A stretch of DNA of 20,230 nt from the NCBI GenBank assembly GCA_965261975.1, contig CBDHEC010000001.1, positions 1-20,230 of the forward strand, in the 5' to 3' direction. Below are positions 1 to 18,249 of this stretch, one piece after another (the first letter of the stretch is position 1; every line of letters begins with the position of its first letter). The stretch is from Alphaproteobacteria bacterium (GTDB lineage Bacteria > Pseudomonadota > Alphaproteobacteria > UBA6615). The notes under the pieces are model-generated. The model was not told where the DNA came from, did no database searches, and saw only the letters and a program-made list of their open reading frames with translations. The position numbers and the translations under genes are program-made.

Positions 1-542
1 AAGACGATCGACACCTACGGGTTGTTCATGAAGGCGAACAGCTCGGCTGGCGGACCGGGCGAGGGGGTCGCGCTGCGCTTCACCGACCGGCGCAACGATC
101 ACGAGGTGGAGCTGGCGGTGATCATCGGCGAGGGCGGTTCCGACATCGCCGAGGCCGATGCGATGGACCATATCTGCGCCTATTCGATCGGGCTCGACAT
201 GACCGTGCGGGGCACGGAGGACCGCAGCCTGCGCAAGGGGATTGATACCTATTCTGTGCTGGGGCCTGGCTGGTAACGGCCGATGAGATCGCCGACCCCG
301 GCCACCTGGATTTTCGAAATCCGTGTGAATGACGAGGTGCGCCAGAAATCGAACACCGAGTATCTGATTTCGATATCCCGCGTCTCATCGCCTATGCCTC
401 GTCATTCATGACGCTCTATCCCGGCGATGTCATCATGACGGGTACGCCCGAGGGCGTGGGCCCGGTCGAGCCCGGTGATGTGATGCACGCCTGGATCGAC
501 CAGGTGGGAGAGATGTCGATCCCGGTGCTTGCGCACGAATAA
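1..542 (+). CDS. Fumarylacetoacetate hydrolase (FAH) family protein, 5'-truncated by the window, with about 3 apparent frameshifts
   Basis: Frame 1 gives DHEVELAVIIG...YSIGLDMTVR...RKGIDTYSVLGP. Shifting frame near 264, 313 and 370 restores WLVTADEIADP, VNDEVRQKSNT and FDIPRLIAYASSFMTLYPGDVIMTGTPEGVGPV...AHE, with TAA at 540-542. These are typical FAH-fold motifs. Confidence 0.88.
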
Positions 543-618: not shown

Positions 619-1017
619 ATGAACATCAGTGAAGCCGCCGAGCAGGCAGGCCTACCTGCGAAAACCATCCGTTATTACGAGGATATCGGACTGGTCGAGC
701 CGGCGCGCCGGCGTGATAACGGCTATCGCGACTATGCAGAGCGCGACGTGCATATGCTGCGTTTCCTGTCGCGCGCCCGTGGGCTCGGCTTCGCCGTCGA
801 GGAATGCCGCGCGCTCGTCGCGTTATACGCCGACACGGATCGCAAGAGCGCGGATGTGAAAGAGATCGCCCTCAACCGGGTGACGGACATCGACGCCAAG
901 ATCGCCGAGTTGCAGGCGATGCGCGCAACCCTGGTCGAACTTGCCGAGACCTGCCACGGCGACGATCGGCCCGACTGCCCGATCATCGATGACCTGGCCA
1001 GTCGTTTGGCCGACTGA
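619..1017 (+). CDS. cueR: Cu(I)-responsive MerR-family transcriptional regulator
   Basis: ATG 619 follows AGGAG (607-611). N-terminal [28 protein letters not shown]; C-terminal metal loop [12 protein letters not shown]. Confidence 0.95.
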
Positions 1018-1018
1018 G

Positions 1019-3328
<2,310 letters not shown>

Positions 3329-3337
3329 GCTGGCCTG

Positions 3338-4732
3338 CTAGGCCAGCGCCGCGCGCAGCTTCGGATACTGGGCCAAGATGCCCGCCGTCTCGGCCATGGA
3401 TTCGGAATCGTTGAAGGCGGGCACACCGGCCGCCTCCATCTTCTTGAACCATTCGTCCTGGTGTTCGAGGGTGCCCATCATCGAATGGAAGCAGGGTAAG
3501 CCGACATTTTCGGCCAGGCCCGAGAGCGTGTCGATGATCGGGCCCGCATCGACCATGAAGGGCACCACGTGAATGGTCAGGATGGCATCGAACGTGTCGC
3601 CGGCCTGGGCGACCGCCCCCTCGAAGGCGGGGCCGAACCGGTCTTCGCGCGCATCGGCCAGCAGGTCGATCGGGTTCGCCACGGCGGCCTCACCCGGCAG
3701 CATCTCGCGCAGGAGCGATGCATAGGCGTCGGGCAGGTCCGGCATCTCCAGCCCTTCGGCGCGCAGCTGGTCGGTGGTGATCACGCCGGGTCCGCCGGAA
3801 TTCGACAGGAGCAGCATGCGGGAACCGATCCCCTGCGGGTGCAGGCCGAAACCCTTGGCCGCGAGAAGCAGGCGCCGGACCGACGGGACGCGGATCACGC
3901 CGCAGTCGCGCAGATAGGCGTCGATCTCGGCGTTGGGCATGGCGGTGCCGCCGGTGTGGTTGCGCACGGCCGACGCGCCCTGTTCGGAGCCGCCGCCCAT
4001 GAGCGCCACCACCGGCTTCTTCGCGGCGACCTTGCGGGCGACCGCGCGGAACCGGTCATGGTCGGCGATGGCCTCTATGTAGAGCAGCACGCAGCGGCAG
4101 CTGTCCTGATTGCCGAGATATTCGAGATAGTCGGTCACCTCGAGATGGACGGCATTGCCGACCGAGACGACGGTGCTGACGGGCAGGCGGTCGATGTTGG
4201 CCTTGGCGATGATCTCTTCCGTGATTGCCCCCGATTGGGAGATCGCCGCGATGCCGCCGCCGGGCGGCAGGTCGCGCAGGAAGGTGGCGGCGAAGGGCGC
4301 GCCTTCGGCGAGGTGGATGATGCCCGCACAGTTGGGCCCGAAGATGGTGATGCCCGCGGCATCGGCCTTGCGCAGGAGTCCCGCCTCGCGCGCGACGCCG
4401 TCGTCGCCGGCCTCGCGGAACCCGCCGGGCAGGATCATCAGGTTCTTGTGGCCGGTCGCCGCGGCCTCGTCGACGATGTCGAGGATGAAATCCGGCCGGA
4501 TCACCACGACGACGAGATCCACGGGCGCGTCGAGTTCGGACAGGGAGGTCACGGCGGGCAGGCCGAGAATCTCGCCGCCCTTGGGGTTCACCGGAACAAT
4601 ACGCCCGGCATAGTTCGATGCGATCAGATTGCGCAGCACCGCCCCGCCGGAACTGGTGAGCCGCTCGCCCGCCCCGACGACGGCCACACTCTCAGGCTGG
4701 AAGAACGGACGGCAGTCGCGAGGTTCGGTCAT
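3338..4732 (-). CDS. Acyl-CoA synthetase (NDP-forming) alpha-subunit-like CoA-binding protein, lacking an ATP-grasp domain
   Basis: FFQPESVAVVGA, VPVNPKG, GGFRE, GPNCAG, SQSGA, VSVGN, NHTG (phospho-His position), SNSGGPG, NPIDL. The 464-aa protein ends without an ATP-grasp module. Confidence 0.85.
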   Translation of the reverse strand: MTEPRDCRPFFQPESVAVVGAGERLTSSGGAVLRNLIASNYAGRIVPVNPKGGEILGLPAVTSLSELDAPVDLVVVVIRPDFILDIVDEAAATGHKNLMILPGGFREAGDDGVAREAGLLRKADAAGITIFGPNCAGIIHLAEGAPFAATFLRDLPPGGGIAAISQSGAITEEIIAKANIDRLPVSTVVSVGNAVHLEVTDYLEYLGNQDSCRCVLLYIEAIADHDRFRAVARKVAAKKPVVALMGGGSEQGASAVRNHTGGTAMPNAEIDAYLRDCGVIRVPSVRRLLLAAKGFGLHPQGIGSRMLLLSNSGGPGVITTDQLRAEGLEMPDLPDAYASLLREMLPGEAAVANPIDLLADAREDRFGPAFEGAVAQAGDTFDAILTIHVVPFMVDAGPIIDTLSGLAENVGLPCFHSMMGTLEHQDEWFKKMEAAGVPAFNDSESMAETAGILAQYPKLRAALA

Positions 4733-4747
4733 CGGATATCTACCAGC

Positions 4748-5311
4748 CTAGAAGATGTAGAAGGTGGCGGCGCGCACACACAGCGGCCAGTGGCCGGCCT
4801 CGAACAGGCGGAACTTGGCTGCGAAGGGGTGGCCGCTATTGTCATTGGCGGCGTCAACGCCCGCGGCTTTCTCGACCGCCGCCTGATAGGCCGACATGGT
4901 GGCCGCGCCGGCCGCGGACCGGGTCAGGCCCTGGTCCGCCACGCCGCCACGTGCCGCCGCGACGGCGGCCGCGCCATGCACGATGTCGGAGACCTTGTCG
5001 GACAGATCCGTGAGGGCGTGGGTGAGGGGCATGTCGCCGACCTTGGCCGTGGCCTGGTCGAGCAGGGTCTTGCGCCGGTCTTCCTCGGCATCCCACCAGT
5101 CGGCATCCCAGTCGGTCTGCTTGATGCAATCCTCGGCCGCGCGCCAGTCGGCGATCTCGACGATCGGCAGATCACCGAGGCCGAGGGCCTGGGTGTATTC
5201 CGCGACATCCCCGCGTTCGGCCGTGCTCAGTGGCGTGCCGACGAAGGAGAACCATGACGCCGTGCGCAATCGCTGGGGAAAGTCGGCGAGCGCCGCGACA
5301 TGGTCGGTCAT
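4748..5311 (-). CDS. Hypothetical protein, 187 aa
   Basis: The start codon directly abuts the gtdA stop (5312) and the stop lies 15 nt before the next gene. Composition is protein-like; no family recognised. Confidence 0.8.
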   Translation of the reverse strand: MTDHVAALADFPQRLRTASWFSFVGTPLSTAERGDVAEYTQALGLGDLPIVEIADWRAAEDCIKQTDWDADWWDAEEDRRKTLLDQATAKVGDMPLTHALTDLSDKVSDIVHGAAAVAAARGGVADQGLTRSAAGAATMSAYQAAVEKAAGVDAANDNSGHPFAAKFRLFEAGHWPLCVRAATFYIF

Positions 5312-6358
5312 TCAGGCGTTCCCGCGGTCCTCGCGCCACAGGCCGAGCTTCTGCTGGGCCGGGCGATCGGAGAAGCTGAACAGCACCGCGTCCTCGCTGG
5401 CGATGTGCCGCTGGGGTACCCAGCAGGGGACGACGAAATGATCGCGCGGACCCCATTCGAAGGTCTGGTCGCCGATGATCGATTTCCCGGTTCCCTCGAC
5501 CACGGAGTAGACAGTGCCGTCGGAGCATCGATAGCCCGCCGTCTCGAAACCCTTGGGCAGGAGCTGCATGAAGGTGCCGATGGTCGGCATCGGGGAATCG
5601 CCGTTGTCCGGGTTCACATAGCGCAGCTTGAGGCCGTGGCAGGGATCCCACTCGTCGGTCTTGCGCATGGTCTCCAGCGCCTCGCGGGTGCGCGTGTAGG
5701 GATAGTTGAAGATCGGCGAGGATGGGCTGCGTTGTTCGTGGTCGACCGGAAGCAGGCCCGAACCGTAGCGCGCGAGGGAATCACCGCTCGGGCGGGTCTT
5801 GCCCTGGTTCTTCTCGCCATAGGGCTCCGCAAACGTGGTGTCGAGAGTCTCGACCAGGGGTACATCGAGCCCGTCGAGCCACACCATCGGGTTGTCCGAG
5901 GGGTTGCCATGGTCGTGCCAGGTCCAGGACGGGGTGATGACGAAGTCGCCTTCCTCCATGATGGTTTTCTCGCCGTCGACGGCGGTGTAGGCGCCGGACC
6001 CCTCGACGATGAAGCGGAGCGCCGCCTGGGTGTGGCGATGGGCCGGCGCGATCTCGCCCGGCATGATGAGCTGCAGGCCCGCGAACAGGGAAGTGGTGAC
6101 CCGGTAGCGCCCGCGCATCCCCGGGTTCTCGAGGATGAGCACCCGGCGCTCGGCCTGCTCCGCCGTGATCAGGTCGGCCGACTTCATCAGCGTGTCGCGG
6201 ATCTCGTTATAGTGCCAAATGTAGGGCTCGCAATCGCTCTTCGGCTCCTTGCGGGCGAAGGTGTGCAGCACCTCCCAGAGCGGCGCGAGATTCTTCGGGT
6301 CGCAATCGTCCTTGTAGTAAGGCAACAGGTCGGGACGAACGTCGGATCGGATGCTCAT
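5312..6358 (-). CDS. gtdA: Gentisate 1,2-dioxygenase (bicupin)
   Basis: LAPLWEVL, AERRVLILENPG, AGLQLIMPGE.APAHRH, TPSWTWHDHGN, WLDGLDVP, SPIFNYPY, LRYVNP, FSFSDRPAQQKLGLWRE. RBS GAGGAAG upstream. Confidence 0.93.
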   Translation of the reverse strand: MSIRSDVRPDLLPYYKDDCDPKNLAPLWEVLHTFARKEPKSDCEPYIWHYNEIRDTLMKSADLITAEQAERRVLILENPGMRGRYRVTTSLFAGLQLIMPGEIAPAHRHTQAALRFIVEGSGAYTAVDGEKTIMEEGDFVITPSWTWHDHGNPSDNPMVWLDGLDVPLVETLDTTFAEPYGEKNQGKTRPSGDSLARYGSGLLPVDHEQRSPSSPIFNYPYTRTREALETMRKTDEWDPCHGLKLRYVNPDNGDSPMPTIGTFMQLLPKGFETAGYRCSDGTVYSVVEGTGKSIIGDQTFEWGPRDHFVVPCWVPQRHIASEDAVLFSFSDRPAQQKLGLWREDRGNA

Positions 6359-6395
6359 GTGACTTCCTCGTGTGTGCGGTGGTCGGGCGCCCTTG

Positions 6396-7109
6396 TCAGG
6401 CCGCTTCCGCCACGTCCGGCAGTGTCAGGTTGAGTTCGCCCTCGACCAGCTCACGTGCCCGTTTGACATAGTCGGCCAGCATATCCTCATTGGTCCGCTG
6501 CTTGATCCCCCATTTGCGATAAATTTCGTTGTTCTTCGAACCGGCGCGGCCGAAGAACTTCGGCAAAATCGGGAAATAGCGGTTAATCGCGTCCTGCACC
6601 GCCTTGCGGCCCTCGTCTGTCTGGATCAATTCCTTGCAGAAATCCTCGCCGAACTGCGCATGGAAGCGTTCCTCGGGCATGGTCATGCGCGACAGGTTGC
6701 GCAGCGGCAGGAACTTGCACTGGGCCAGATCCTCGACCTGGAGAATCTCTGCCAGGTCGGCCAGCAGCTTGATGACGCAGAACTCTTCCCAGGATTCGAG
6801 CGGGAACTCAAAGATCGACAACGGCTTCTTGTCGCCCGGGATCATGCGCTCCGGTGCGATGCCGATTTCCTCGCCCAACTCGCGGAAACGCACATGATGG
6901 CCGTATTCCTCCATGGCGACCCGGCAGGTCAGCCATTTGGAATAGGGGGTCGGCGCCAGCGCGATGGCCGGTTCGTCGAACACCTGGGCGCCGTAGAGTT
7001 CATTCACGGCGTGGCTGATGACGATCTTCTCGACCGCCACGCGGAATTCTTCCGGGGCGTCCTGCAACTCGCGGGAGGTCTCGACGGAATCTCCGGGATT
7101 GATGCTCAT
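6396..7109 (-). CDS. PaaA/BoxB-family ferritin-like di-iron aryl-CoA oxygenase (catalytic-type), 237 aa
   Basis: Putative ligand set E37, E68-x-x-H71 (EEYGHH), D118, E147-x-x-H150 (EERFH). PaaA-like tail NRYFP...FG...KWGIKQRTNEDM. RBS AGGAG upstream. Confidence 0.85.
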   Translation of the reverse strand: MSINPGDSVETSRELQDAPEEFRVAVEKIVISHAVNELYGAQVFDEPAIALAPTPYSKWLTCRVAMEEYGHHVRFRELGEEIGIAPERMIPGDKKPLSIFEFPLESWEEFCVIKLLADLAEILQVEDLAQCKFLPLRNLSRMTMPEERFHAQFGEDFCKELIQTDEGRKAVQDAINRYFPILPKFFGRAGSKNNEIYRKWGIKQRTNEDMLADYVKRARELVEGELNLTLPDVAEAA

Positions 7110-7142
7110 GGGTTGCTCTCCTGTCGGTTGGACAATTGTCGG

Positions 7143-8099
7143 CTAGACCTTCGGGTCCGTGTTGAAGGATTCCAGGTCCGTGGTGAGGTCGGTGTAGTCG
7201 GCGCTGAACTCGTCGGGTGCTGCGGCGACCAGGTCGGCGACATCCCAGTCCTTGTCGTCGCGCGACAGGGTCGCCACCGGGCGCGGCTGGGAGAAAAGGA
7301 ACAGCTCGCGGCCGCGCACCCCGAAAATCTGGCCGGTGATGGACTGGCTCTCGGGCTGGCACAGCCAGGCGACGGCCGTGGCCACATGGTCGGGCGACAG
7401 CTTGAGGGCGCGTTCCTTGTAGGCGGCCTGCTCGTCGTTGGCGGGCACGATCATGTCGGTGACCCGGGTTGCGGCGAAGGGTGCGATGGCGTTGCAGGTG
7501 ATGCCGGCGCGCCCGAGGTCCATGGCGGCCACGCGGGTCAGCCCGATCATTCCGGACTTGGCCGAGGCGTAGGCTGATTGGCCGAAATTTCCATACAGGC
7601 CCGCGGAGGAGGTGATGTTGATGATCCGACCCCAGTCATAGGGGGCACCGCCGCGCTCTTCCTTGGCCTGGGCGCGCATCACCGGGGTGGCGGCGTTCGC
7701 CAGATACCAGGCGCCACACAGGTTGGTTTCGATCACCTCGCGGAAGTCGTTCGGGTCGGACTTGAAGATGAAGCCGTCCCGCAGGATGGCGGCGTTGTTC
7801 ACGAGGATGTCGAGCCCGCCAAAAGTTTCGGTGGCACATTCGACGGCGGCGCGCGCGCCCTCGGCGCTGGCGATCGAGCCCGTGAAGGCCGCGGCATTGT
7901 CGCCGATGGCCGCGGCTGCGGCCGCCGCAACCGATGGGTCGGCGTCCTGGCCCCCCACATCGCCGCCATTGTCTGCGATCACGACCTGAGCCCCGCGTGC
8001 GGCGAGCGACTGCGCGATGGCCAGCCCGATGCCACGACCGGCCCCGCTTATCAGTGCGACGCGGCCGTCGAGCCGTCCGTCTTGAGTCTCAGCGCTCAT
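7143..8099 (-). CDS. Short-chain dehydrogenase/reductase (3-hydroxyacyl-CoA dehydrogenase/MFE-2-like type)
   Basis: SGAGRGIG, NNAAILRD, NITSSAGLYGNFGQSAYASAK (YxxxK). Start MSAETQ at 8099 overlaps the reductase stop (ATGA). Confidence 0.9.
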   Translation of the reverse strand: MSAETQDGRLDGRVALISGAGRGIGLAIAQSLAARGAQVVIADNGGDVGGQDADPSVAAAAAAAIGDNAAAFTGSIASAEGARAAVECATETFGGLDILVNNAAILRDGFIFKSDPNDFREVIETNLCGAWYLANAATPVMRAQAKEERGGAPYDWGRIINITSSAGLYGNFGQSAYASAKSGMIGLTRVAAMDLGRAGITCNAIAPFAATRVTDMIVPANDEQAAYKERALKLSPDHVATAVAWLCQPESQSITGQIFGVRGRELFLFSQPRPVATLSRDDKDWDVADLVAAAPDEFSADYTDLTTDLESFNTDPKV

Positions 8100-9124
8100 G
8101 ACGCCTCCTCGAGTTTTGCCTTCTCGGCCTCGGTGTAGAACGCGTCCGCGTGACAATCCTCGTCGCGCACACGCATTTCCTTGAGCTTGCCGACGCAGGT
8201 CTCGACCATGATGGGCGGGCCCGCCAGATAGGCCTTGGAGCCGTCCAGGTCGTCGAAGTCATCGGCCATCACGTCTGCCAGAAACCCGCTGCGGCGGTCG
8301 GTCGTTCCCGCCGGCTCGGACAGGACGATTTCGAACGAGAAGTTCTCATGCGTCGCCGCAAGCGAGCGGAAGTGATCTTCGAGATAGACATCCTCTTCGG
8401 CGCGGACGCCGAAATACATGTGGATAGGCTGTTCGGCGCCGGCGGCAAGCGCGGATTCGACGATCGACTTTACCGGCGCAAGACCGGAGCCGCCGGCCAG
8501 TGCGACTATCGGGCCGGTATGCTTCTCGCGCAGGTATGAGATCCCATAGGGTCCCTCGACGCGGACGTCGTCGCCGACCTTCAGCTCCTGATAAACGAAA
8601 CTGCTCACCCCGCCGTCGGGAACCATCCGGATGTGGAATTCGAGAATATCTTCATCGGGCAGGCTGGCCATCGAATAGTCGCGCGGCGGCTGGCCGGGAA
8701 AGTGCAGGCGGGCGTATTGGCCGGCCGTGAATTCGAACGGGCCGTGGGCCTCGATCGAGAGGCGCACGCGGGCGATGTCGTGGGTCAGATGTTCCAGCGA
8801 GACGACCTTGCAGTCGAGCTTGCGCAGCGGGTGGGAGATCACCTCGTCCTGCTCCAGCCATGCGACCTCGCAATCGCTCCAGGGCACGGCGCGGCAGGCG
8901 AGGATAAGACCCGATTCTTTCTCCTCGTCGCTCAGCGCATAGTCCGAGTAGGGCGACATCTCGATCTCCCCGGAATGCAGGCGCGACTTGCACGCGCCGC
9001 AATTCCCCGACTGGCAGCCATGGGGGTAGGAGATACCTGCGGCCAGCGCGGCCGTGAGGATCGTATCGCCCATCTCGACGTCGAGCGGCTCATCGGATTG
9101 CTTGAGTTTGACGGAAAAAGTCAT
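8096..9124 (-). CDS. Oxygenase reductase: plant-type 2Fe-2S ferredoxin plus FAD/NAD(P)H-binding FNR domains
   Basis: CQSGNCGAC...LAC cluster motif, RDYS flavin motif, GPYG, AGGSGLAP, YFG.R, YLAGPPIMV, DAFY. Confidence 0.93.
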   Translation of the reverse strand: MTFSVKLKQSDEPLDVEMGDTILTAALAAGISYPHGCQSGNCGACKSRLHSGEIEMSPYSDYALSDEEKESGLILACRAVPWSDCEVAWLEQDEVISHPLRKLDCKVVSLEHLTHDIARVRLSIEAHGPFEFTAGQYARLHFPGQPPRDYSMASLPDEDILEFHIRMVPDGGVSSFVYQELKVGDDVRVEGPYGISYLREKHTGPIVALAGGSGLAPVKSIVESALAAGAEQPIHMYFGVRAEEDVYLEDHFRSLAATHENFSFEIVLSEPAGTTDRRSGFLADVMADDFDDLDGSKAYLAGPPIMVETCVGKLKEMRVRDEDCHADAFYTEAEKAKLEEAS

Positions 9125-9148
9125 GGCGGCCCCGATTGTAGCAGGATC

Positions 9149-9188
9149 AATTAGTTTGTAACGCTAATTATTGTCAATACAAACTAAT
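9149..9188 (-). promoter_or_regulatory. Putative internal sigma70 promoter overlapped by an inverted-repeat operator
   Basis: Minus-strand TTGACA (9177-9172), 17 bp, CTAATT (9154-9149). Perfect 11-bp inverted repeat ATTAGTTTGTA (9150-9160) / TACAAACTAAT (9178-9188) in an AT-rich island. Confidence 0.65.
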
Positions 9189-9213
9189 CATGCGGGCCCT
9201 TGGCGCAGGGGGA

Positions 9214-10533
9214 TCAGTTCAACAGACGTGGCAGGATGAGGGTGATTCCCGGCAGAAAGACGAGGATGACGACCCGCACGACGTCGGACATGAAGAAGGG
9301 GATCACGCCCTTGAAGGTCTCGATCATCGGCACGTCGCGGGCCATGGAGTTGATGATGAACACGTTGAGCCCGACCGGCGGCGTGATCAGTCCCATTTCG
9401 ACGACGATGAGCGAGATGATCCCGAACCAGAGCTTGGTCTCCTCCGGGCTCATGCCGAAATCCAGGCCCGCGATGATCGGCCAGAAGATCGGCACGGTCA
9501 GGAAGATCATGGAGAGCGAGTCCATGACGAAGCCGAGCAGGATGTAGAGCACGATCATGCCGGCCAGGATCGTCAGCGGCGGGAGGCCGGAACTGCCGAA
9601 GAAATCCGCGGCGAAGATCGGCAACTCGGAGAAACCCAGGAAGGCGTTGAAAATCGCCGCGCCGAGCAAGATCAGGAAGATCATCGCCGTCGTCTGCGCG
9701 GTGCCGAGCAGGGCCTCGACGAATCCCTTCCACCGCATGCCGCCGCGGGTGATGGCAATCAGGAAGGTGCCGGACGCGCCCACGCCGGCGCCTTCCGTGG
9801 GGGTGAAGACCCCGAAATAGATGCCGCCCATCACCAGGATGAAGATCAGCAGGACCGGCCAGATTTCCAGCAGCGCCGACCATTTCTCCGCCCGGCTTGC
9901 CGTCGGGCCGGCGGGACCCGCCTCCGGGTTTACCCGCACGACGATGGCGATCACCGCCATGTAACCCAGGGCCGCGAGGACGCCGGGAATGAAGGCCGCC
10001 TGAAAAAGCGTCGCCACATTCGCCTCGACCATCACCGCATAGATGATCAACACGATCGAAGGCGGAATCAGGATGCCCAGGGTGCCACCGGCGGCCAGGG
10101 TGCCCGTGGCCAATGCGCCGGAATAGTTGAAGCGGCGCAGCTCGGGCAGGGCGACCTGGCCCATGGTGGCCGAGGTGGCCAGCGAGGATCCGCTGATCGC
10201 GCCGAACCCGGCGCAGCCACCGACGGCCGCCATCGCGACGCCGCCGCGATGATGCCCGAGCCAGGTATAGGCTGCCGAGAACAGGGCCTGGCTGAGCCCG
10301 GCCTTGGCGGCGAACTGGCCCATCAGCAGGAACAGCGGGACCACCGAGAGGCTGTCGCTGGTGAAGCGCCAGTAGGTCTCGGTCTTGAGATAGCTAAACA
10401 GCGCGACCTCGCCCGCGATCGTGACGTAGCCGACAATGCCGACCCCGAGCATGGCGACGCCGATGGGGATGCGCACGGCCAGCAGGACCAGGAGGGCGGC
10501 GAAGCCGACCAGTCCGGTTTCGAGGCCGCTCAT
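9214..10533 (-). CDS. dctM: TRAP transporter large permease
   Basis: Highly hydrophobic 439 aa with VPLFLLMG, FGAISGSSLAT, AGGTLGILIPPS, TPTEGA and GLITPPVGLNVF. Confidence 0.95.
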   Translation of the reverse strand: MSGLETGLVGFAALLVLLAVRIPIGVAMLGVGIVGYVTIAGEVALFSYLKTETYWRFTSDSLSVVPLFLLMGQFAAKAGLSQALFSAAYTWLGHHRGGVAMAAVGGCAGFGAISGSSLATSATMGQVALPELRRFNYSGALATGTLAAGGTLGILIPPSIVLIIYAVMVEANVATLFQAAFIPGVLAALGYMAVIAIVVRVNPEAGPAGPTASRAEKWSALLEIWPVLLIFILVMGGIYFGVFTPTEGAGVGASGTFLIAITRGGMRWKGFVEALLGTAQTTAMIFLILLGAAIFNAFLGFSELPIFAADFFGSSGLPPLTILAGMIVLYILLGFVMDSLSMIFLTVPIFWPIIAGLDFGMSPEETKLWFGIISLIVVEMGLITPPVGLNVFIINSMARDVPMIETFKGVIPFFMSDVVRVVILVFLPGITLILPRLLN

Positions 10534-11099
10534 GGTTGCGGCTCGCCGGGGCCGCCGCCGTCCACGTCTTGTCCGTAACGCCCGGCGCGGAGCTCGGCGA
10601 GGCTGCGGCCGATTGTGTAGACAATCACGACCACCAGGAAGGACATCATCACGAAGGAGGCGGGGAAAGTGGTCCAGCGCGGGAAGTTAATGGTCATCGA
10701 CAATTCGTTGTACTCGTACATGTCGAGGCCGCCGAAGATCATCCGCCAGGCCAGCAGGGTGGCGATGACCAGGTAGACGATGCCGCCGACCACATCGGAG
10801 AAAATGCGCGCGCGCGGCGGGGTGGCGGACATGAAGAAGTCGACGAGCACATTGCCGCGGACGAGCTGGCACCAGGGCAGGAAGGCGAAGACGGCGAGGC
10901 CCGTGCCGATGGCCACCAGCTCGAAATCGCCGGAGATCGGATTGTTGAGCAGCGAGCGTCCGGTAACGCTGACGGTCGTCAACAGGGCCATGGCGCACAG
11001 GATGATGCCGCCGAAGATCGCGAGCCACCTTGCGATGGCGTAAAGCACCCGGCCCACCGGATCGGCGGGCCGGGCGTTGTCAGATGATATTTCGCTCAT
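10530..11099 (-). CDS. dctQ: TRAP transporter small permease
   Basis: Four hydrophobic segments, V.GRSL...I.GDFEL and RGNVLVDFF. Stop overlaps the dctM start (ATGA). Confidence 0.92.
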   Translation of the reverse strand: MSEISSDNARPADPVGRVLYAIARWLAIFGGIILCAMALLTTVSVTGRSLLNNPISGDFELVAIGTGLAVFAFLPWCQLVRGNVLVDFFMSATPPRARIFSDVVGGIVYLVIATLLAWRMIFGGLDMYEYNELSMTINFPRWTTFPASFVMMSFLVVVIVYTIGRSLAELRAGRYGQDVDGGGPGEPQP

Positions 11100-11143
11100 C
11101 GGCGAAGACCCGAGCGGTCATGGGTTGGTCGTGCGGGGTTCCC

Positions 11144-12196
11144 TTAGGAATTGCCCGAATGCTTCTCGATCATGTCGAGAGCATCGATGACCATGGCCGG
11201 ACCGTCGAGGCCGCGCTTGCCGACCTCTTCATACCAGCGGTCGAAAACCGGCTGCGAGGCGGCTTTCATCTTGTCGACCTCGGCTGCCGGGATCACGTAG
11301 AACTTGTTCTTGGGCTTGGACGCGACGGCGTTGCGGCCCGGTGTTTCCACATCGATCCAGTTCTGGCCGGCCTGGGCCGCGATGTTGCCGCCCGAATTGT
11401 CGTTGATCACCTTCTGGAGGTCCGGCGGCAGCTTGTCGTAGCTGGCCTTGTTCATCAGGAAAGTGAACACGTTGGTGCCCAGGCGGGGCTGTGCGCCCGC
11501 GAGGCTCGAGAAGTGGCTGACCAGGTCGGGGGTCTTCACCGCCGGTGCAATCTCGAAGGGCAGGGTCACCCCGTCGATGACACCCTTGGAAAGGGCGGCG
11601 GGAATTTGCGGCAGCGGAAGCCCGACGCCGACGGCGCCGAGGGATTCGAGCAGCCAGACCCCGCCACGCGACGCGGCGCGCAGCTTCATGCCCTTCAGGT
11701 CGGCCATCTTCTGGACCGGTTCCTTGGTTTGGAAGAGGAAGCCCTGATGGCTGTGCAGCAGGATCGGGTGATAGGCGCGCAGCGCCTTGTCGAGATATTT
11801 GGCCTGGAAGTCCTGGAGCGCCAGCGTGGTCGAGAGCGCATCCTTGTGGACGAAGGGCAGCTCGAACGGCTCGACCTCGGGCATGCGGCCCGGCGAGAAG
11901 CCCGGCAGGGTCCAGACAATGTCGACGACGCCGTCGCGGGCCTGCTGGAGGAGCTGCGGCGCCTTGCCGCCAAGCGCCATGAGCCAGTGCGGCTGGATCT
12001 TCAGGCGGCCGCCCGATTCCTTCTCGATCTTCTTGGCCCACGGGGTCAGGAATGTCTTGCCCGGGTTGGCGACGGGCGGGATGAATGTATGCATCCGCAA
12101 GGTGACTTCCTGCGCCATGCCCGGCGCCGCTGTGAGGGTCAGCGCGGCGATGGCGGCGCCCGCAAGCGCGGCCGTTTTCATGATTTTTCGACTCAT
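11144..12196 (-). CDS. dctP: TRAP transporter substrate-binding protein
   Basis: Start MSRKIMK at 12196 after AGGGAGAG. Signal peptide ending PGMA-QE; ESGGRLKI, RDGVVDI, DLKGMKLR, ALSKGVIDG, MNKASYDKLPPDLQ. Confidence 0.93.
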   Translation of the reverse strand: MSRKIMKTAALAGAAIAALTLTAAPGMAQEVTLRMHTFIPPVANPGKTFLTPWAKKIEKESGGRLKIQPHWLMALGGKAPQLLQQARDGVVDIVWTLPGFSPGRMPEVEPFELPFVHKDALSTTLALQDFQAKYLDKALRAYHPILLHSHQGFLFQTKEPVQKMADLKGMKLRAASRGGVWLLESLGAVGVGLPLPQIPAALSKGVIDGVTLPFEIAPAVKTPDLVSHFSSLAGAQPRLGTNVFTFLMNKASYDKLPPDLQKVINDNSGGNIAAQAGQNWIDVETPGRNAVASKPKNKFYVIPAAEVDKMKAASQPVFDRWYEEVGKRGLDGPAMVIDALDMIEKHSGNS

Positions 12197-12358
12197 ACTT
12201 TTCTCTCCCTGTTTGGGCGTTCTCGGCATTTTGTCGGGAACGTCCCTGATCTCGTGGTCGCTGTTCTTGTGGTTATTGCGACCAATTGCTGGCGCATAGT
12301 CTAGCGCATCCTTCGGCCAATGCATCCGCCAAAAGTGGCACGGACATCCGGTATCACC

Positions 12359-12784
12359 TCAGTCCTTTCCCGCTTCGTAACGGGCGCGAAAATCATCCGG
12401 GATGTCGGCCGTGATCAATTTGCCGGGTTCGTCCGGGTCGGTGGATGCCCATACTCTGATCTCTTCCCCCCGCACGGCCGGTGTTCCGGCATTGGAGACC
12501 TCGTGGGTGACCACCAGGGTGCGCCGTCGCCACTCGCTCACATGGCTGGTGATCTCCAGGTCGTCACCGAACTGGCTGGGCGACAGGAACTTGGCGTGGG
12601 CGTCGACCAGCGGCAGACCGACCGTCCTGTACTCATCGAGCATGACCTCGTAACCGACCCCGGCACTCTCGAACAGATGCCGGGTGCCGTGATCGAACCA
12701 AACGAAATAGTTGGGGTAGAAGACGATCTTGGCCGGATCGCAGTGGCCCCACTCGACGGGAATCTTGATTGTGTTTCTGCGCAT
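12359..12784 (-). CDS. Acyl-CoA thioesterase, 4-hydroxybenzoyl-CoA thioesterase (hot-dog) family
   Basis: VEWGHCDPAKIVFYPNYFVWFD and LPLVDAHAKFLSPSQFGD. GGAGG lies 10 nt upstream of ATG 12784. Confidence 0.9.
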   Translation of the reverse strand: MRRNTIKIPVEWGHCDPAKIVFYPNYFVWFDHGTRHLFESAGVGYEVMLDEYRTVGLPLVDAHAKFLSPSQFGDDLEITSHVSEWRRRTLVVTHEVSNAGTPAVRGEEIRVWASTDPDEPGKLITADIPDDFRARYEAGKD

Positions 12785-12966
12785 GCCCGGCATGCCTCCG
12801 TCGGTGATCATCGGGGGAGACGAGGTGTCAGTTTCGTTGGTGCAACCGAGCGGGTCAATGTTCGTGCGCCTAATCTGTCCCGGGCCGACAAACAGGATTG
12901 TTGTGGTACATATTCGCCTCGCCTCGAAGCTGCGGGCGAGGCATAAGGCGACGAGGGGCGTGTAGC

Positions 12967-13422
12967 GTGACGGAAGACGAAAACAGCAAGACCGGTGAGA
13001 TCGATCTGGGCCTTTTGCCGGGCCTCGTCGGTTATCAGTTGCGGCGTGCGCAAATCGAGACGTTCCAGCATTTCGTCTCGAGTTTGGGCGGGGAGGGCAT
13101 GCGACCAGGCTGGTTCGGCCTGCTGATTATCGTCGCCAACAACCCCGGGCTCAGCCAAACCCAGCTGGCCCGCACGCTCGGTGTCGACGCATCGACAATG
13201 GTCGCGATGATCGACCGCATGGAACAGAGCGGCTGGGTGGCGCGGTCACGGTCCAAGTCCGACCGCCGGTCCCACGAGCTGCACTTGACGGATGCGGGCG
13301 CCGGAATGCTGGAGCGGATCACGCCGTTGGTGAGAGATCATGATGGCGCGATTACCGCGAACCTTACCGAGGCCGAATCCGAAGAGCTGTTGCGCCTGTT
13401 GCGGAAGGTCACGGGCGTCTGA
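12967..13422 (+). CDS. MarR-family transcriptional regulator, divergent from the catabolic cluster
   Basis: GTG 12967 after GAGGGG; GYQLRRAQ, NPGLSQTQLARTLGVDASTMVAMIDRME..GWV.R..S.SDRR...L.LT..G. Confidence 0.92.
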   Translation: MTEDENSKTGEIDLGLLPGLVGYQLRRAQIETFQHFVSSLGGEGMRPGWFGLLIIVANNPGLSQTQLARTLGVDASTMVAMIDRMEQSGWVARSRSKSDRRSHELHLTDAGAGMLERITPLVRDHDGAITANLTEAESEELLRLLRKVTGV

Positions 13423-13538: not shown

Positions 13539-15806
13539 ATGCGCCTGACCAACCTGCTCGCCGGCACGGCCATGGCGACCGTCCTTGCGGGTTGTGCCGT
13601 GTTGACCCCGCTGCCCGAGCCTGTGAGCGTTGACCAGCGTCTCGACGCGATCCCGGTCACAGGTGTCCCGCTCGACGCGCCGGTGCGTATCCACTGGAAT
13701 GAGTTTCAGGTGCCGTTTGTCGAGGCCGAGAGTGATACCGATCTCGCGGTGGCGCTGGGCGTGGTGCATGCGCATTTGCGCTGGGGACAAATGGAGGTGG
13801 CGCGGCGCCTGGTGCGCGGGCGCGTTGCCGAGATGGGCGGACCGCTGGCGCGCGACATCGACAAGTCCCTGAGAATTCTGAATTTCGGGCGCGGCGCAGA
13901 GGCGACGCTCGCCCTGATGCCGCCAGACACGCGGGCCTGGCTCGACGGGTTCGTCGCCGGTGTGAATCACTACATCGCCAACGCCGGCGAACTGCCCCAC
14001 GAACACCGTGTGCTGGGCCTCGAACGGGAACCCTGGACCGCCGCCGACGTGATCGCCGTCGGCCGCCTGGCCTCGACGGACGTGAACTGGTTGATCTGGT
14101 TCGGCATGCTCTCCCTGCGCGACCGTGAGGACTGGCCCGAGATCTGGGCGCGCGCGACGGAGAAGGGCCTTGAGTCCATTCCCAGCATCGGTCCCGGTGC
14201 CGACGATCAGGCGTCGGTCTTCCACGAATTGCTCGCCGGGTTTTCCAAGGCCGGGTCCAACTCTGTCGCCGTATCCGGCGCGCGGACGGGCACGGGTGCG
14301 GCGATGATCGCCAGCGACCCCCATCTGGGCGTGTTCCTGCCGAACCTGTGGTTGCTGGCCGGCTACAAGTCGCCCTCCTATCACGCGGTCGGCATGATGA
14401 TACCCGGGGTACCCTTCATCGCGCTCGGACGGAACGAACAGATTGCATGGGGCGGCACCAATATGCGGGCACTTTCCACCGACCTGGTGGATGTCAGTGA
14501 CCTGCCGGCGGCGGATATCCGAACCCGAAGCGAGACTATCGGCGTGCGCTGGTGGTTCGATACCGAGGTCGAGGTGCGCGAGACCCGGTTCGGCCCGGTG
14601 ATCACGGACTCGCCTCTTGTGAACTCGGCGCGACCGGACGAGACGATCGCGCTGCGCTGGATGGGCCATCAGCCGAGCGATGAGATCACGTCGATGCTGC
14701 GAATGAGCCAGGCGCGGAATTTCGAGGGGTTTCGAAATGCGCTCGACGGGTTCCACGTGCCGGGACAGAACATGGTTTATGCCGATGCTGACGGGCATAT
14801 CGGCCAGGTCATGGCGGTGAAGTTGCCCGATCGTTCGCCGGTTCCGCCGCCGGACCTGCTGATCTCCGCCGAGGCGGCCGCCGGGAATGACCCATGGCAG
14901 AAAACTGTCACCGCCGGCGAATTGCCCGCGGCGTTCGATCCGCCGGCCGGCTTTGTCGCATCGGCGAACAACAAGCCGGCAGACGCGGATGTCGCGGTTG
15001 GCTGGCATTTTTCCAACGATGACCGGATCGCGCGCCTGCGCGACCTTCTGTCGGGGGACAGCAAGGTCACCGTTGCGGATCTGAGCGCGCTGCAGCAGGA
15101 CGTGTATATGGAATCAGCAGTTGTCCTGCGTGATCTGCTGCTGGGGAAGCTCGGCGCGGTTTCCCAGGAGTTAAACCCGGCACAAACCGACCTGGTTGCG
15201 AAAATTCGCGCCTGGGACGGACATTATGCGGTGGATTCTTCCGGCGCGGTCGCGTTCGAACTCACGATGTTCGCCTTTGCCGATAAATTTCTGAGCGAGG
15301 ATGCCCGGACGCGAATTTCGGTTGGCGGCCGCTTCGATGAACAGCTCGCCGAGATGATCGGCGCGATGCCCGCGGGCGACGTGGCTCCGATCCTGGCGGC
15401 GGCGTTGGCCGACGCGGCGGTCAAGCATGAGGCGCTTTCCACATGGGGCGACATGCACCGGCTCGGGCTGCGTCATCCGCTGAATTTTATCCCGATCGTG
15501 GGCAACAAGTACCGTTTCAACGATGTGCCGATCGGCGGCAGCTCGACGACGCTGATGAAGACCGCCCATTCCGATACCGACGAGCGGCATTTCACGCGCT
15601 TCGGCTCGCAATCGCGGCATATCTCCGACATGTCCGACCCCGATGCAAACTGGTTCACCCTGCTGGGCGGGCAGGATGGATGGATCAACAGCGCCAACTT
15701 TATCGATCAGTTCGATCTCTGGTTGCGTGGCGATTATGTGCGCCTGCCGCTGCAGCTGGAGACCGTCCGGCAGGAATTCACCCGGAAAACCGAGTTGACG
15801 CCCTGA
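13539..15806 (+). CDS. Penicillin acylase family (Ntn-hydrolase) protein with a lipoprotein signal peptide
   Basis: ALGVVHAHLRWGQME, catalytic GSNSVAVSG, ASDPHL, PGVPFIALGRN..IAWGGTN, QNMVYAD.DGHIG, ASANN, GGQDG. N-terminal lipobox LAG-C19. Confidence 0.92.
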   Translation: MRLTNLLAGTAMATVLAGCAVLTPLPEPVSVDQRLDAIPVTGVPLDAPVRIHWNEFQVPFVEAESDTDLAVALGVVHAHLRWGQMEVARRLVRGRVAEMGGPLARDIDKSLRILNFGRGAEATLALMPPDTRAWLDGFVAGVNHYIANAGELPHEHRVLGLEREPWTAADVIAVGRLASTDVNWLIWFGMLSLRDREDWPEIWARATEKGLESIPSIGPGADDQASVFHELLAGFSKAGSNSVAVSGARTGTGAAMIASDPHLGVFLPNLWLLAGYKSPSYHAVGMMIPGVPFIALGRNEQIAWGGTNMRALSTDLVDVSDLPAADIRTRSETIGVRWWFDTEVEVRETRFGPVITDSPLVNSARPDETIALRWMGHQPSDEITSMLRMSQARNFEGFRNALDGFHVPGQNMVYADADGHIGQVMAVKLPDRSPVPPPDLLISAEAAAGNDPWQKTVTAGELPAAFDPPAGFVASANNKPADADVAVGWHFSNDDRIARLRDLLSGDSKVTVADLSALQQDVYMESAVVLRDLLLGKLGAVSQELNPAQTDLVAKIRAWDGHYAVDSSGAVAFELTMFAFADKFLSEDARTRISVGGRFDEQLAEMIGAMPAGDVAPILAAALADAAVKHEALSTWGDMHRLGLRHPLNFIPIVGNKYRFNDVPIGGSSTTLMKTAHSDTDERHFTRFGSQSRHISDMSDPDANWFTLLGGQDGWINSANFIDQFDLWLRGDYVRLPLQLETVRQEFTRKTELTP

Positions 15807-15832
15807 CCGCGTCCATGGCGTAAACTGGGGCG

Positions 15833-17362
15833 ATGCTGAACGCGACACCCCTTGTTCGATTCTACGCCACCCGCCGCCTGCGTAAGCTAGCGGCGAGGGA
15901 CGCTGCCGACGTGCAGCAACGGCAGCTGCTCGGTTTGGTGGCGCGCGCCAATCGCACGGCGTTTGGTCGCGATCACGGGTTCGCGTCGATCCGCAGCGTG
16001 ACGGAGTTCCAGGCCAAGGTACCGCTACGCCGGTACGCTGATTTCCAGGAACAGTATTGGGGTCCGGCCTTTCCCGATTTGCGGGGCACGACCTGGCCGT
16101 CGCGCGTTCCCTATCTTGCCGTGACGTCCGGCACGACGACGGGCCGCACGAAATACATCCCGTGTACCAATGAGATGATCTCGTCGAACACCATGGCGGG
16201 GCTCGACCTGATCTGCCATCACCTGGCGAACCGGCCCGACAGCCAAGTGCTGGGCGGTAAGTCGTTCATGCTGGGCGGCAGCACCGATTTCAAGAAAGAG
16301 GCGCCCGGCATTCACAGCGGCGACCTTTCCGGGATCATGACCGAGAGCGTGCCCTGGTGGTTTCAGGGCCGGACCTTTCCTCTGCGCGAGGATGCGCTGG
16401 AGAGCGACTGGGAGCTCAAGGTCGACCGGCTGGTGCGGGCGCTGGATGGCGAGGATATTCGGCTCATCGGCGGCACCCCGTCCTGGTTGCTGATCTTCTT
16501 CGATCAGCTGGCCGCCTATCGCGGGGACAGCAGCCCCGACCTCGCGAAGTATTTCCCCAACCTGGAGTTGATGGTCCATGGCGGTGTCGACTTCACGCCC
16601 TATCGTACGCGTTTCGAGACGCTGATCGCCGACACCCGTGCCGAGCTGCGCGAGGTGTATCTGGCGAGCGAGGGTTTCATCGGCGTTGCCGACCAGGGGC
16701 CCGAGGACGGCCTGAGACTGATGCTCGATACCGGCCTGTTCTACGAGTTCGTGCCGGTGGATGAACTGGACTCGAGCCAGCCCACCCGGCACTGGGCCGG
16801 TACGGTCCAGCGGGGCATCAACTACGCATTGGTGGTGTCGAGTTGTGCCGGTCTTTGGTCATATATCATCGGTGACACGGTCGAGCTTGTAAGCCGCAAC
16901 CCGCTGCGGGTACGGGTGACCGGCCGGACGAGTTACATGATGTCCGCGTTCGGCGAGCATCTGATCGCGGAGGAGATCGAGGCGGCGGTCCGCGACGGCG
17001 GCGTGGCCATCGGGGCGGACGTCCGGGACTGGTCGGTGGGCGCGATCCATGCCGGCGACGATGATAGCCGGGGCGGGCATCTGTACATCGTGGAGTTCGC
17101 CACCGAAGTGCCGTCCGAGGCGCGCCTGGCGCATTTCGTGCGGATCCTCGACGCCGCACTTTGCGCGACCAACGAGGACTATGAGGCCCACAGGTCGGAC
17201 GGGTTCGGCATGAACGCGCCCGAGGTGATCGCCCTGCCGCCGGGCGGGTTTGCGGAATGGATGAAGGCGCGCGGTCAACTCGGCGGCCAGCACAAGGTGC
17301 CGCGGATCATCAACGACGCGGAGCTGTTCGAGAATCTGAGAAATTTCGCGAGCGGGCGCTAG
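15833..17362 (+). CDS. GH3 auxin-responsive / acyl-acid amido synthetase family protein
   Basis: TAFGRDHGF, FQAKVPL..Y, TSGTTTGRTKYIP (P-loop), YLASEGF, FYEFVP, GLWSYIIGDTV, GRT, FGEH and C-terminal GQLGGQHKVPR. Confidence 0.92.
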   Translation: MLNATPLVRFYATRRLRKLAARDAADVQQRQLLGLVARANRTAFGRDHGFASIRSVTEFQAKVPLRRYADFQEQYWGPAFPDLRGTTWPSRVPYLAVTSGTTTGRTKYIPCTNEMISSNTMAGLDLICHHLANRPDSQVLGGKSFMLGGSTDFKKEAPGIHSGDLSGIMTESVPWWFQGRTFPLREDALESDWELKVDRLVRALDGEDIRLIGGTPSWLLIFFDQLAAYRGDSSPDLAKYFPNLELMVHGGVDFTPYRTRFETLIADTRAELREVYLASEGFIGVADQGPEDGLRLMLDTGLFYEFVPVDELDSSQPTRHWAGTVQRGINYALVVSSCAGLWSYIIGDTVELVSRNPLRVRVTGRTSYMMSAFGEHLIAEEIEAAVRDGGVAIGADVRDWSVGAIHAGDDDSRGGHLYIVEFATEVPSEARLAHFVRILDAALCATNEDYEAHRSDGFGMNAPEVIALPPGGFAEWMKARGQLGGQHKVPRIINDAELFENLRNFASGR

Positions 17363-18223: not shown

Positions 18224-18249
18224 GATGTTCTCGTTTCTGTATTGGGTGG

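Follow-up and report, generated by a model that had tools for sequence, protein, structure and literature searches.

Gentisate is a hub in the aerobic breakdown of aromatic compounds. To our knowledge, it is supplied by flavin or Rieske hydroxylases that act on free acids and by a few routes that depend on coenzyme A (CoA). The salicylyl-CoA 5-hydroxylase SdgC, which belongs to one of the latter, is a flavoprotein, and Zaar and the Fuchs laboratory reportedly observed, in 2001, the conversion of benzoyl-CoA to gentisate in extracts of Bacillus stearothermophilus. The nearest characterized relatives of the protein studied here, PaaA and BoxB, are described as aryl-CoA ring epoxidases and not as phenol-forming enzymes (PMC4498308; this and the other papers cited by PMC number are represented by excerpts), and PhgA is named as p-hydroxybenzoyl-CoA hydroxylase (PMC7862547, PMC11848710). 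Here we describe an operon on contig CBDHEC010000001.1 of an alphaproteobacterial genome (3.03 Mb, 94.6% complete). The entire contig of 20,230 bases forms the window of our analysis. We posit, with slightly better than even confidence, that this operon encodes a CoA-thioester route from an aromatic carboxylic acid to gentisate by way of a short-chain dehydrogenase/reductase (SDR) and a PaaA-like di-iron protein of 237 amino acids (aa), the presumed catalytic oxygenase subunit (6396-7109, minus strand). The family of this di-iron protein is probably a new type among the aryl-CoA di-iron oxygenases, set apart by its new partner protein, by a dehydrogenase that is obligatory and by a synthetase alpha subunit that stands as an orphan.

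Gene calls were based on an open reading frame (ORF) listing and on Pfam and NCBIfam profile scans of the window ORFs. Ten co-directional minus-strand genes (3338-12811) form one operon within a window of 60-69% G+C, their spacing ranging from a 4-base overlap to an 89-base gap according to the coordinates, and a MarR-family regulator gene diverges from them. In the direction of transcription they encode a hotdog thioesterase, the three components of a tripartite ATP-independent periplasmic (TRAP) transporter, a reductase, the SDR, the di-iron protein, a gentisate 1,2-dioxygenase, a 187-aa protein and the alpha subunit of a nucleoside diphosphate (NDP)-forming acyl-CoA synthetase. The original prediction, made from the letters of the sequence, had named these genes, all of which are present as it described them, and it was also right that flavin and Rieske hydroxylases are missing: the window ORFs that were scanned included neither a flavin monooxygenase nor a Rieske oxygenase, no ring-opening enzyme of the crotonase type and no AMP-binding gene that would encode an adenosine monophosphate (AMP)-forming ligase. 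Its statement that ring-opening enzymes of the PaaG, PaaZ or BoxC type are lacking holds for these ORFs, but not for the genome, which carries BoxC and BoxB on another contig.

The di-iron protein scores above the gathering cut-off of PF05138 (82.3 vs. 28.5 bits). It stays below the equivalog cut-offs of PaaA (TIGR02156, 85.8 vs. 280 bits) and BoxB (TIGR03225, 15.9 vs. 499.1 bits) and also lies far under that of PaaC. Its solved relatives are PaaA (3pvr, 4.3e-18), a stand-alone 235-aa homologue (4mud, 3e-12) and BoxB (3per, 2e-3). Residues E37, E68, H71, D118, E147 and H150 are identical to the aligned residues of 3pvr, which we take to be the metal ligands of PaaA, and they are invariant in 21 sequences of the family. 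Because of these invariant metal-site residues the protein looks catalytically competent. Glu72 and Asp126 are named near the di-iron centre of PaaA, and Lys68 of PaaA, with which Val64 of the di-iron protein aligns, belongs to a 'lysine bridge' (PMC4498308). In a quick maximum-likelihood tree (IQ-TREE, 52 rows, with support from the Shimodaira-Hasegawa approximate likelihood ratio test, SH-aLRT, only), we compared 16 of the orthologues at hand with 15 other PaaA-like proteins of the same class, eight PaaA, eight PaaC and five of seven BoxB sequences; two BoxB rows, a duplicate and a partial paralogue were omitted. All 16 rows of the di-iron family group in a clade of their own (SH-aLRT 99), as do PaaA (98) and PaaC (100), with BoxB as outgroup, and the family stands apart from all three. 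At least four further stand-alone PaaA-like clades of this class (about 250-290 aa) fall outside PaaA, PaaC, BoxB and the di-iron family, and their loci (L109-L122) show no adjoining SDR, 187-aa protein or dioxygenase. PaaB, PaaC and PaaD were not found in the genome, whose PF05138 matches are restricted to the di-iron gene and BoxB.

The gene set is widespread, with 2259 relatives of the di-iron protein in the protein collection and 453 loci carrying such a relative in a sample of one genome per species. The best 80 loci were kept and the window proteins mapped onto them; the counts given below take in only loci with sufficient flank. The carriers are nearly all Alphaproteobacteria (Rhodospirillaceae, Ferrovibrio, Stellaceae and many bins), including a single cultured one, Desertibaculum subflavum (L046). 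Most of these Alphaproteobacteria are uncultured and come from marine and soil habitats, so that current annotation is likely to overlook a common path of aromatic carbon. In 73 of 75 loci the SDR gene is the immediate 5' neighbour of the di-iron gene; a co-directional reductase gene lies no more than 1.6 kb upstream of the di-iron gene in 62 of 70, and a gene for the 187-aa protein, recognized by hidden Markov model match, lies just 3' of it in 56 of 63. Judging by these counts, the constant unit consists of reductase, SDR, di-iron protein and 187-aa protein. The next gene 3' of the di-iron gene encodes gentisate dioxygenase in 49 of 69 loci; counted anywhere in the locus, the dioxygenase is present in 32 of the 46 that have 5 kb flanks on both sides. 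Where it is missing, the 187-aa gene directly follows the di-iron gene. The synthetase alpha subunit is encoded within 4 kb downstream of the di-iron gene in 37/51 loci, and a divergent MarR gene lies within 8 kb upstream in 37/48. Dioxygenase and synthetase alpha subunit are thus the usual companions of the four-gene core, and the counts for SDR and dioxygenase mark the arrangement of the cluster as non-chance. The thioesterase (11 of 40 long-flank loci) and TRAP genes (DctM in 8/40) are lineage-specific additions in the marine lineage of the window. The linkage of the di-iron gene to the dioxygenase gene, by which the original prediction was to be tested, recurs in other genomes, as does that to the reductase gene, whereas its linkage to the thioesterase gene is confined to a lineage. 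The SDR and the hypothetical protein, which had been taken for unusual accessories, turned out to be the most constant partners.

Pathway-relevant genes among the other recurring neighbours are few, namely an alpha/beta hydrolase in Stellaceae and genes of the fumarylacetoacetate-hydrolase family, which sit inside the cluster in other lineages; the remainder reflects housekeeping synteny (FtsK, LolA, exonuclease). No hydratase, thiolase or acyl-CoA dehydrogenase recurs among the cluster neighbours, and no AMP-forming ligase recurs near the cluster. A plasmid search returned only paralogues of 26-27% identity in 11 records, 10 of them from Alteromonas.

The 187-aa protein (4748-5311, minus strand) has no Pfam or NCBIfam match. 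When PDB sequences were searched, no hit came under E 0.13, the best E value in PADLOC was 0.038, and the ESM Atlas yielded hypothetical-protein clusters only. A profile search of 1.84 billion representatives recovered 482 relatives, 150 of them at E <= 1e-30, and all 482 are stand-alone proteins of about 120-320 aa. Protein P0234 was ruled out as a fusion of di-iron and 187-aa proteins and is a gene-calling artefact, because its middle is an Arg-rich, wrong-frame stretch, and an apparent SDR/di-iron fusion in a 570-aa frame at L098 was likewise rejected as a wrong-frame artefact of the same kind. The AlphaFold2 model of the 187-aa protein, built on an alignment of 21 orthologues, is mainly helical with a predicted local distance difference test score (pLDDT) of 91.6. 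It matched no PDB fold at E <= 0.001, the best match being an Rhs immunity protein at 0.16 with template modelling (TM) scores of 0.47-0.57. With a confident model and no known fold, the protein would be a new kind of partner protein.

A complex prediction for the di-iron and 187-aa proteins gave a median score of 0.75, while the best control reached 0.00. Of 80 solved complexes 58 came up to that mark, as did 2 of 110 mismatched pairs; these counts apply here only approximately, because our prediction used alignments of our own. Contacts agreed to at least 97% across the runs, and the pLDDT of the partner was at least 89. On the di-iron side, the predicted interface covers residues 49-76, an invariant helix with E68, H71 and the invariant R63, and on the other side an invariant AAGAA stretch of the 187-aa protein. 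The modelling supports binding of the two proteins, and we read the 187-aa protein as an oxygenase subunit placed like PaaB/PaaC or the effector proteins of di-iron monooxygenases, to none of which it is related.

The reductase (8096-9124, minus strand) consists of an N-terminal plant-type [2Fe-2S] ferredoxin (Fer2, 8-81), a flavin adenine dinucleotide (FAD) domain (FAD_binding_6, 105-194) and NAD_binding_1 (209-310). Its NCBIfam matches to BenC (215 bits, cut-off 430) and MmoC (196 bits) remain under the cut-offs, as does that to PaaE (119.8 vs. 420.8 bits). Judged from these domain hits, the domain order is of the BenC/MmoC type, the reverse of that in PaaE and unlike BoxA. The SDR gene (7143-8099, minus strand; adh_short 3.2e-40) starts with an ATG at 8099, in an ATGA overlap with the stop of the reductase gene; a 337-aa ORF running to 8156 was rejected as too long. 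The best solved relative of the SDR is 2et6, the (3R)-hydroxyacyl-CoA dehydrogenase of multifunctional enzyme type 2 (MFE-2; 7.2e-66), followed by 17-beta-hydroxysteroid dehydrogenase 4. Dehydrogenases of the MFE-2 type oxidize a hydroxyl group beta to a CoA thioester.

The dioxygenase (5312-6358, minus strand) is the sole match in the genome above the gentisate 1,2-dioxygenase cut-off (TIGR02272, 552.3 vs. 442.1 bits). It contains two Cupin_2 stretches and has a solved relative in 2d40 (4.7e-124), and its gene here sits between those of the di-iron protein and the predicted partner. The hotdog thioesterase, of the 4HBT class I type (12359-12811, minus strand; 4HBT_2 5.9e-15, 4HBT), is closest among solved proteins to the 4-hydroxybenzoyl-CoA thioesterase of Pseudomonas CBS-3 (1bvq, 1.1e-19) and keeps an Asp aligned with the catalytic Asp17 of that enzyme. 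The same subfamily includes the gentisyl-CoA thioesterase BH1999 (Dillon and Bateman, PMC516016), and the window protein is a candidate gentisyl-CoA thioesterase. In several Stellaceae (L025, L044, L047, L056, L057, L061, L067, L069), a gene for an alpha/beta hydrolase of about 348 aa lies directly 5' of the reductase gene, in the position of the thioesterase and TRAP genes of the window; this hydrolase may be an alternative thioesterase.

The TRAP genes, all on the minus strand and assigned by their Pfam families, encode DctP, the binding protein (11144-12325), DctQ (10530-11099) and DctM (9214-10533). The best fold matches of the DctP model (pLDDT 86.9) are 5i5p, 5iga and 5izz (40% identity, TM 0.90), TRAP binding proteins from marine metagenomes that are specific for aromatic acid ligands. 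DctP also resembles TarP with coumarate, cinnamate or ferulate, the range from 5i5p to 7nr2 being TM 0.87-0.90 at 38-40% identity. Because of this resemblance to aromatic-acid binders, the cargo of the transporter is likely an aromatic carboxylate.

How the acid would be activated is less straightforward. The synthetase alpha subunit (3338-4732, minus strand; CoA_binding_2, Succ_CoA_lig, Ligase_CoA_2) has all three alpha domains, scores 359 bits on TIGR02717, under the cut-off of 567, and has 2csu (1.5e-63) and 4xyl as solved relatives. The His of its HTGG motif aligns with that of SHTGS in 2csu and is presumably the phosphorylated His of NDP-forming synthetases, enzymes that require an ATP-grasp half. 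No ATP-grasp beta partner was found in the genome, where ATP-grasp_5 matches comprise only SucC, beside its own alpha subunit, and biotin carboxylase, and no beta subunit occurs among the recurring cluster neighbours. In a complete genome of the same family (G133), an orthologous alpha subunit gene adjoins the di-iron gene, and ATP-grasp_5 is limited to one weak match in a 405-aa frame, presumed to be SucC-like. In four more carriers, all ATP-grasp_5 matches fall in fused frames that are 691 aa or longer or in frames of about 400-470 aa, and none of these carriers showed a beta subunit of about 230 aa standing alone. Since neither the genome nor the complete relative has an ATP-grasp beta subunit, the protein is not an ordinary ligase; of the acyl-CoA ligase alpha subunit originally proposed, the alpha subunit stands and the ligase does not. 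A synthetase alpha subunit without its nucleotide-binding half also poses an enzymological puzzle.

Elsewhere in the genome, contig 24 (L102, 8010-12671) carries together boxC, boxB and a gene of the benzoate-CoA ligase family (608 bits vs. a cut-off of 375), and this true BoxB scores 797 bits on the BoxB model (cut-off 499.1). In a sample of the class comprising 151 genomes, one per family, BoxB occurs in eight of the nine genomes with a di-iron orthologue (E <= 1e-100), compared with 27 of 151 overall, the ninth genome being 89% complete. This co-occurrence fits a box-cluster ligase that supplies or primes the aryl-CoA. We regard it as a lead, not a test, because relatedness makes the genomes non-independent and because genome size is a possible confounder. 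BoxA was not found in the genome, the best BoxA-like match being the reductase of the cluster (29.5 bits). Only 4 of the 27 BoxB carriers in the sample have BoxA, so that BoxB without BoxA is the rule in the sampled class. BoxA is absent from all eight BoxB carriers with the di-iron gene and from 15 of the 19 without it. The idea that the cluster's reductase serves BoxB is thus unsupported, because the lack of BoxA is general among BoxB carriers with or without the di-iron gene.

Next to the cluster, a gene for a family III CoA-transferase (18250-19464) and one of the phosphoenolpyruvate (PEP)-mutase/isocitrate-lyase family form a pair at 17366-19464 on the minus strand, and this pair stays beside the cluster in the marine clade. 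Synteny keeps the CoA-transferase gene near the cluster in 8 of 37 loci, and in L015 and L018-L020 this gene, without the other member of the pair, immediately precedes that of the thioesterase. In NCBIfam the CoA-transferase best matches dicarboxylate CoA-transferases, in every case under the cut-off, and it might provide the CoA activation that the pathway needs.

According to our reading of the operon, the TRAP system would import an aromatic acid, which would then be converted to its CoA thioester. As a committed guess, we take the substrate to be benzoyl-CoA or a monohydroxybenzoyl-CoA, supplied at least partly by the benzoate-CoA ligase of the box cluster. A di-iron oxygenase composed of the 237-aa protein, its 187-aa partner and the [2Fe-2S]/FAD reductase would attack the ring of the aryl-CoA, and by analogy with PaaA and BoxB the first product would probably be a non-aromatic epoxide or its hydrate. 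After addition of water to the epoxide, we infer that the SDR would oxidize the C2 hydroxyl, which is beta to the thioester, and that the ring would re-aromatize to gentisyl-CoA. The hotdog thioesterase and/or the alpha-only synthetase would remove the thioester, gentisate 1,2-dioxygenase would open the ring, and MarR might control the core operon through a palindrome 5' of the reductase gene. This is the simplest scheme in which all constant parts have a use. If true for benzoyl-CoA, it would proceed with no net NAD(P)H, one hydroxyl oxygen deriving from O2 and one from water. The original prediction had the same overall logic of import, CoA activation, di-iron oxygenation, de-esterification and ring cleavage, and its gene content was correct; the resemblance of DctP to aromatic-acid binders agrees with its import step, and the likeness of the thioesterase to the 4-hydroxybenzoyl-CoA enzyme, with the catalytic Asp kept, with its de-esterification step. 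Its treatment of the SDR, the 187-aa protein and the ligase needed correction.

A more explicit form of the scheme, which we think unlikely to be right, has a new four-part system of minimal PaaA-like subunit, 187-aa subunit, MmoC/BenC-type reductase and obligatory hydroxyacyl-CoA-type dehydrogenase convert benzoyl-CoA to gentisyl-CoA by epoxidation, para addition of water and dehydrogenative re-aromatization, with the alpha-only synthetase recycling CoA. The 187-aa subunit, of a fold not seen before, would then sit on the helix that bears the metal ligands, and the synthetase alpha subunit would pass CoA from gentisyl-CoA to the next acid via an acyl-phosphate and a phosphohistidine, so that ATP would only prime the cycle, through the box-cluster ligase.

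The gene set also allows for routes in which the SDR has no part in making gentisate. Direct hydroxylation of salicylyl-CoA at C5 or of 3-hydroxybenzoyl-CoA at C6 would give gentisyl-CoA in one step, with the SDR otherwise employed. Thioesterase and dioxygenase fit such a route, a hydroxylated substrate would be more economical given that BoxB and BoxC already handle benzoyl-CoA, and the step from salicylyl-CoA to gentisyl-CoA is published for sdgC (PMC13215587). We nevertheless consider it rather unlikely, as it leaves a near-obligatory MFE-2-type SDR without a role, the operon lacks a salicylate- or 3-hydroxybenzoate-CoA ligase, and the nearest characterized relatives form epoxides, not phenols (PMC4498308). 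The missing role of the SDR bears equally on a Phg-like route, in which 4-hydroxybenzoyl-CoA would be hydroxylated at C1 and its thioester moved by a 1,2-shift (NIH shift) to give gentisyl-CoA, a chemistry that needs no dehydrogenase. PhgABC converts 4-hydroxybenzoate to gentisate in this way, by CoA thioester formation, hydroxylation/1,2-shift and hydrolysis (PMC7862547, PMC11848710), the window combines a class I 4HBT-type thioesterase with gentisate dioxygenase, and the original prediction took PhgA for a relative of PaaA. Yet phgABC alone sufficed in Escherichia coli, without a dedicated reductase, SDR or 187-aa partner (PMC11848710), and the window has no AMP-forming ligase of the PhgC kind; we give this route little credence.

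The four-gene core could, finally, oxidize another acyl-CoA, such as an alicyclic or side-chain ester, and merely neighbour the gentisate genes. This would explain why 14 of the 46 loci with 5 kb on both sides lack the dioxygenase, and it would suit an SDR of the type found in the beta-oxidation of fatty acids and steroid side chains, closest TRAP binders that include hydroxycinnamate binders, and the occurrence of at least four other PaaA-like clades in different gene contexts. It accords poorly with a dioxygenase gene that is so often next downstream, and that here even separates the di-iron and partner genes, with a thioesterase of the aryl-CoA type, and with the lack of any recurring hydratase, thiolase or acyl-CoA dehydrogenase in the cluster. 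We judge it distinctly unlikely.

Several points weigh against the epoxide/SDR route to gentisate as well. Because of the 14 loci without dioxygenase, the core module is not everywhere tied to gentisate, and the thioesterase and TRAP genes accompany the core in only a minority of loci. For the di-iron clade, every chemical step is extrapolated, the branching order among the PaaA-like clades is left unresolved by the quick tree, and no hydratase for the epoxide was identified. The operon encodes no complete CoA ligase, its alpha subunit being without an ATP-grasp partner. A second benzoyl-CoA route would be redundant in a genome with BoxB and BoxC, and the co-occurrence with BoxB may reflect a shared lifestyle or genome size and not function.

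As for regulation, the MarR-family protein (12898-13422, plus strand; PF01047, 5.8e-16) has its best NCBIfam match in the Saro_0803 family (90.8 bits, below the cut-off of 200). A candidate operator/promoter (9135-9188, minus strand) lies in the AT-rich, 89-base gap 5' of the reductase gene. It comprises a perfect 11-nt inverted repeat, ATTAGTTTGTA-N17-TACAAACTAAT (9178-9188 / 9150-9160), around a perfect TTGACA, and a promoter-like GTTACA-16-TACAAT site at 9162-9135; a consensus promoter scan gave two sites where 1.2 were expected, no more than chance would produce. The exact palindrome of the window was not found in the relatives. A related one, TTGTTTG-N5-CAAACAA with at most one mismatch per half, is present in 25 of 64 regions upstream of their reductase gene, the whole 1.207 Mb of their loci having only 32 matches. 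In most relatives, MarR diverges at exactly the position of the palindrome 5' of the reductase gene. We infer that the palindrome may be the MarR operator of the core operon, and that the thioesterase and TRAP genes were probably inserted between regulator and core operon in the lineage of the window.

Further genes flank the operon. The contig starts within a gene of the fumarylacetoacetate-hydrolase family (1-276, plus strand), found in the same place in L002, L003 and L005, which may encode the enzyme that hydrolyses fumarylpyruvate or maleylpyruvate in the lower gentisate pathway. A copper P-type ATPase gene (908-3325, plus strand) is split over four frames with breaks near 2521, 2666 and 2830, between which its identity to the orthologue falls. 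Compared with the window, an independent contig (run X1, depth 2.7) shows indels of 1-4 bases at 2522, 2573, 2666, 2830, 2897 and 2951, and for this reason the breaks are probably low-coverage assembly errors and not signs of a pseudogene. On the other side, a penicillin-amidase family gene and a GH3 gene (13539-17362, plus strand) follow MarR on the same strand and adjoin the cluster in close relatives only. The GH3 protein scores 565.9 bits on the model of the lyso-ornithine lipid synthetase OlsH, slightly below the cut-off of 620, and a function in lipid metabolism is accordingly more likely for it than the conjugation of aromatic acids.

Literature searches, with most subscription journals outside their coverage, found no paper on the di-iron protein family. 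If our reading is true, the family would join PaaA and BoxB as a third functional type among the aryl-CoA di-iron oxygenases. The phenylacetyl-CoA 1,2-epoxidase PaaABC(D)E of E. coli and Pseudomonas sp. Y2 shares with it the Pfam family PF05138, the same six metal-site residues, an NAD(P)H reductase of its own that contains a [2Fe-2S] centre, and the CoA-thioester context. PaaA of E. coli is longer (309 vs. 237 aa), belongs to a separate clade and has Lys68 of the 'lysine bridge' (PMC4498308) where the di-iron protein has Val64. Its partners PaaB, PaaC and PaaD are missing from the genome of the window, the flavin domain of PaaE comes first and its [2Fe-2S] domain last, whereas the window reductase begins with the ferredoxin, and in place of PaaG and PaaZ the window has an SDR and a ring-cleavage dioxygenase. 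The benzoyl-CoA 2,3-epoxidase BoxAB of Azoarcus evansii is, as proposed here, a di-iron oxygenase acting on an aroyl-CoA, and like the system of the window BoxB needs no PaaC-like structural subunit (PMC4498308). With about 470 aa, BoxB is twice as long as the di-iron protein and matches it only weakly, its partner BoxA, not found in this genome, carries two [4Fe-4S] centres, and the Box product is opened hydrolytically by BoxC, whereas our scheme re-aromatizes the ring.

Among the CoA-dependent routes to gentisate, PhgABC of Brevibacillus laterosporus PHB-7a has the same logic of CoA thioester, ring oxygenation to gentisyl-CoA and thioesterase, but consists of three genes with an AMP-forming ligase, and the excerpts report no reductase, SDR or extra subunit (PMC7862547, PMC11848710). 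The Sdg salicylate pathway of Streptomyces sp. WA46 and BH1999 of Bacillus halodurans likewise represent CoA-dependent gentisate routes (PMC13215587, PMC516016), and BH1999 places the class I 4HBT thioesterase subfamily in a gentisate cluster, as in the window (PMC516016). In its logic, the proposed route is also similar to BenABC-BenD, a Rieske dioxygenase with a cis-dihydrodiol dehydrogenase, where a BenC-type reductase serves a dearomatizing oxygenase and an SDR restores the ring without a net cost in NAD(P)H. The resemblance does not extend beyond this logic, as the oxygenase of the window is a di-iron and not a Rieske protein and its substrate is presumed to be a CoA ester.

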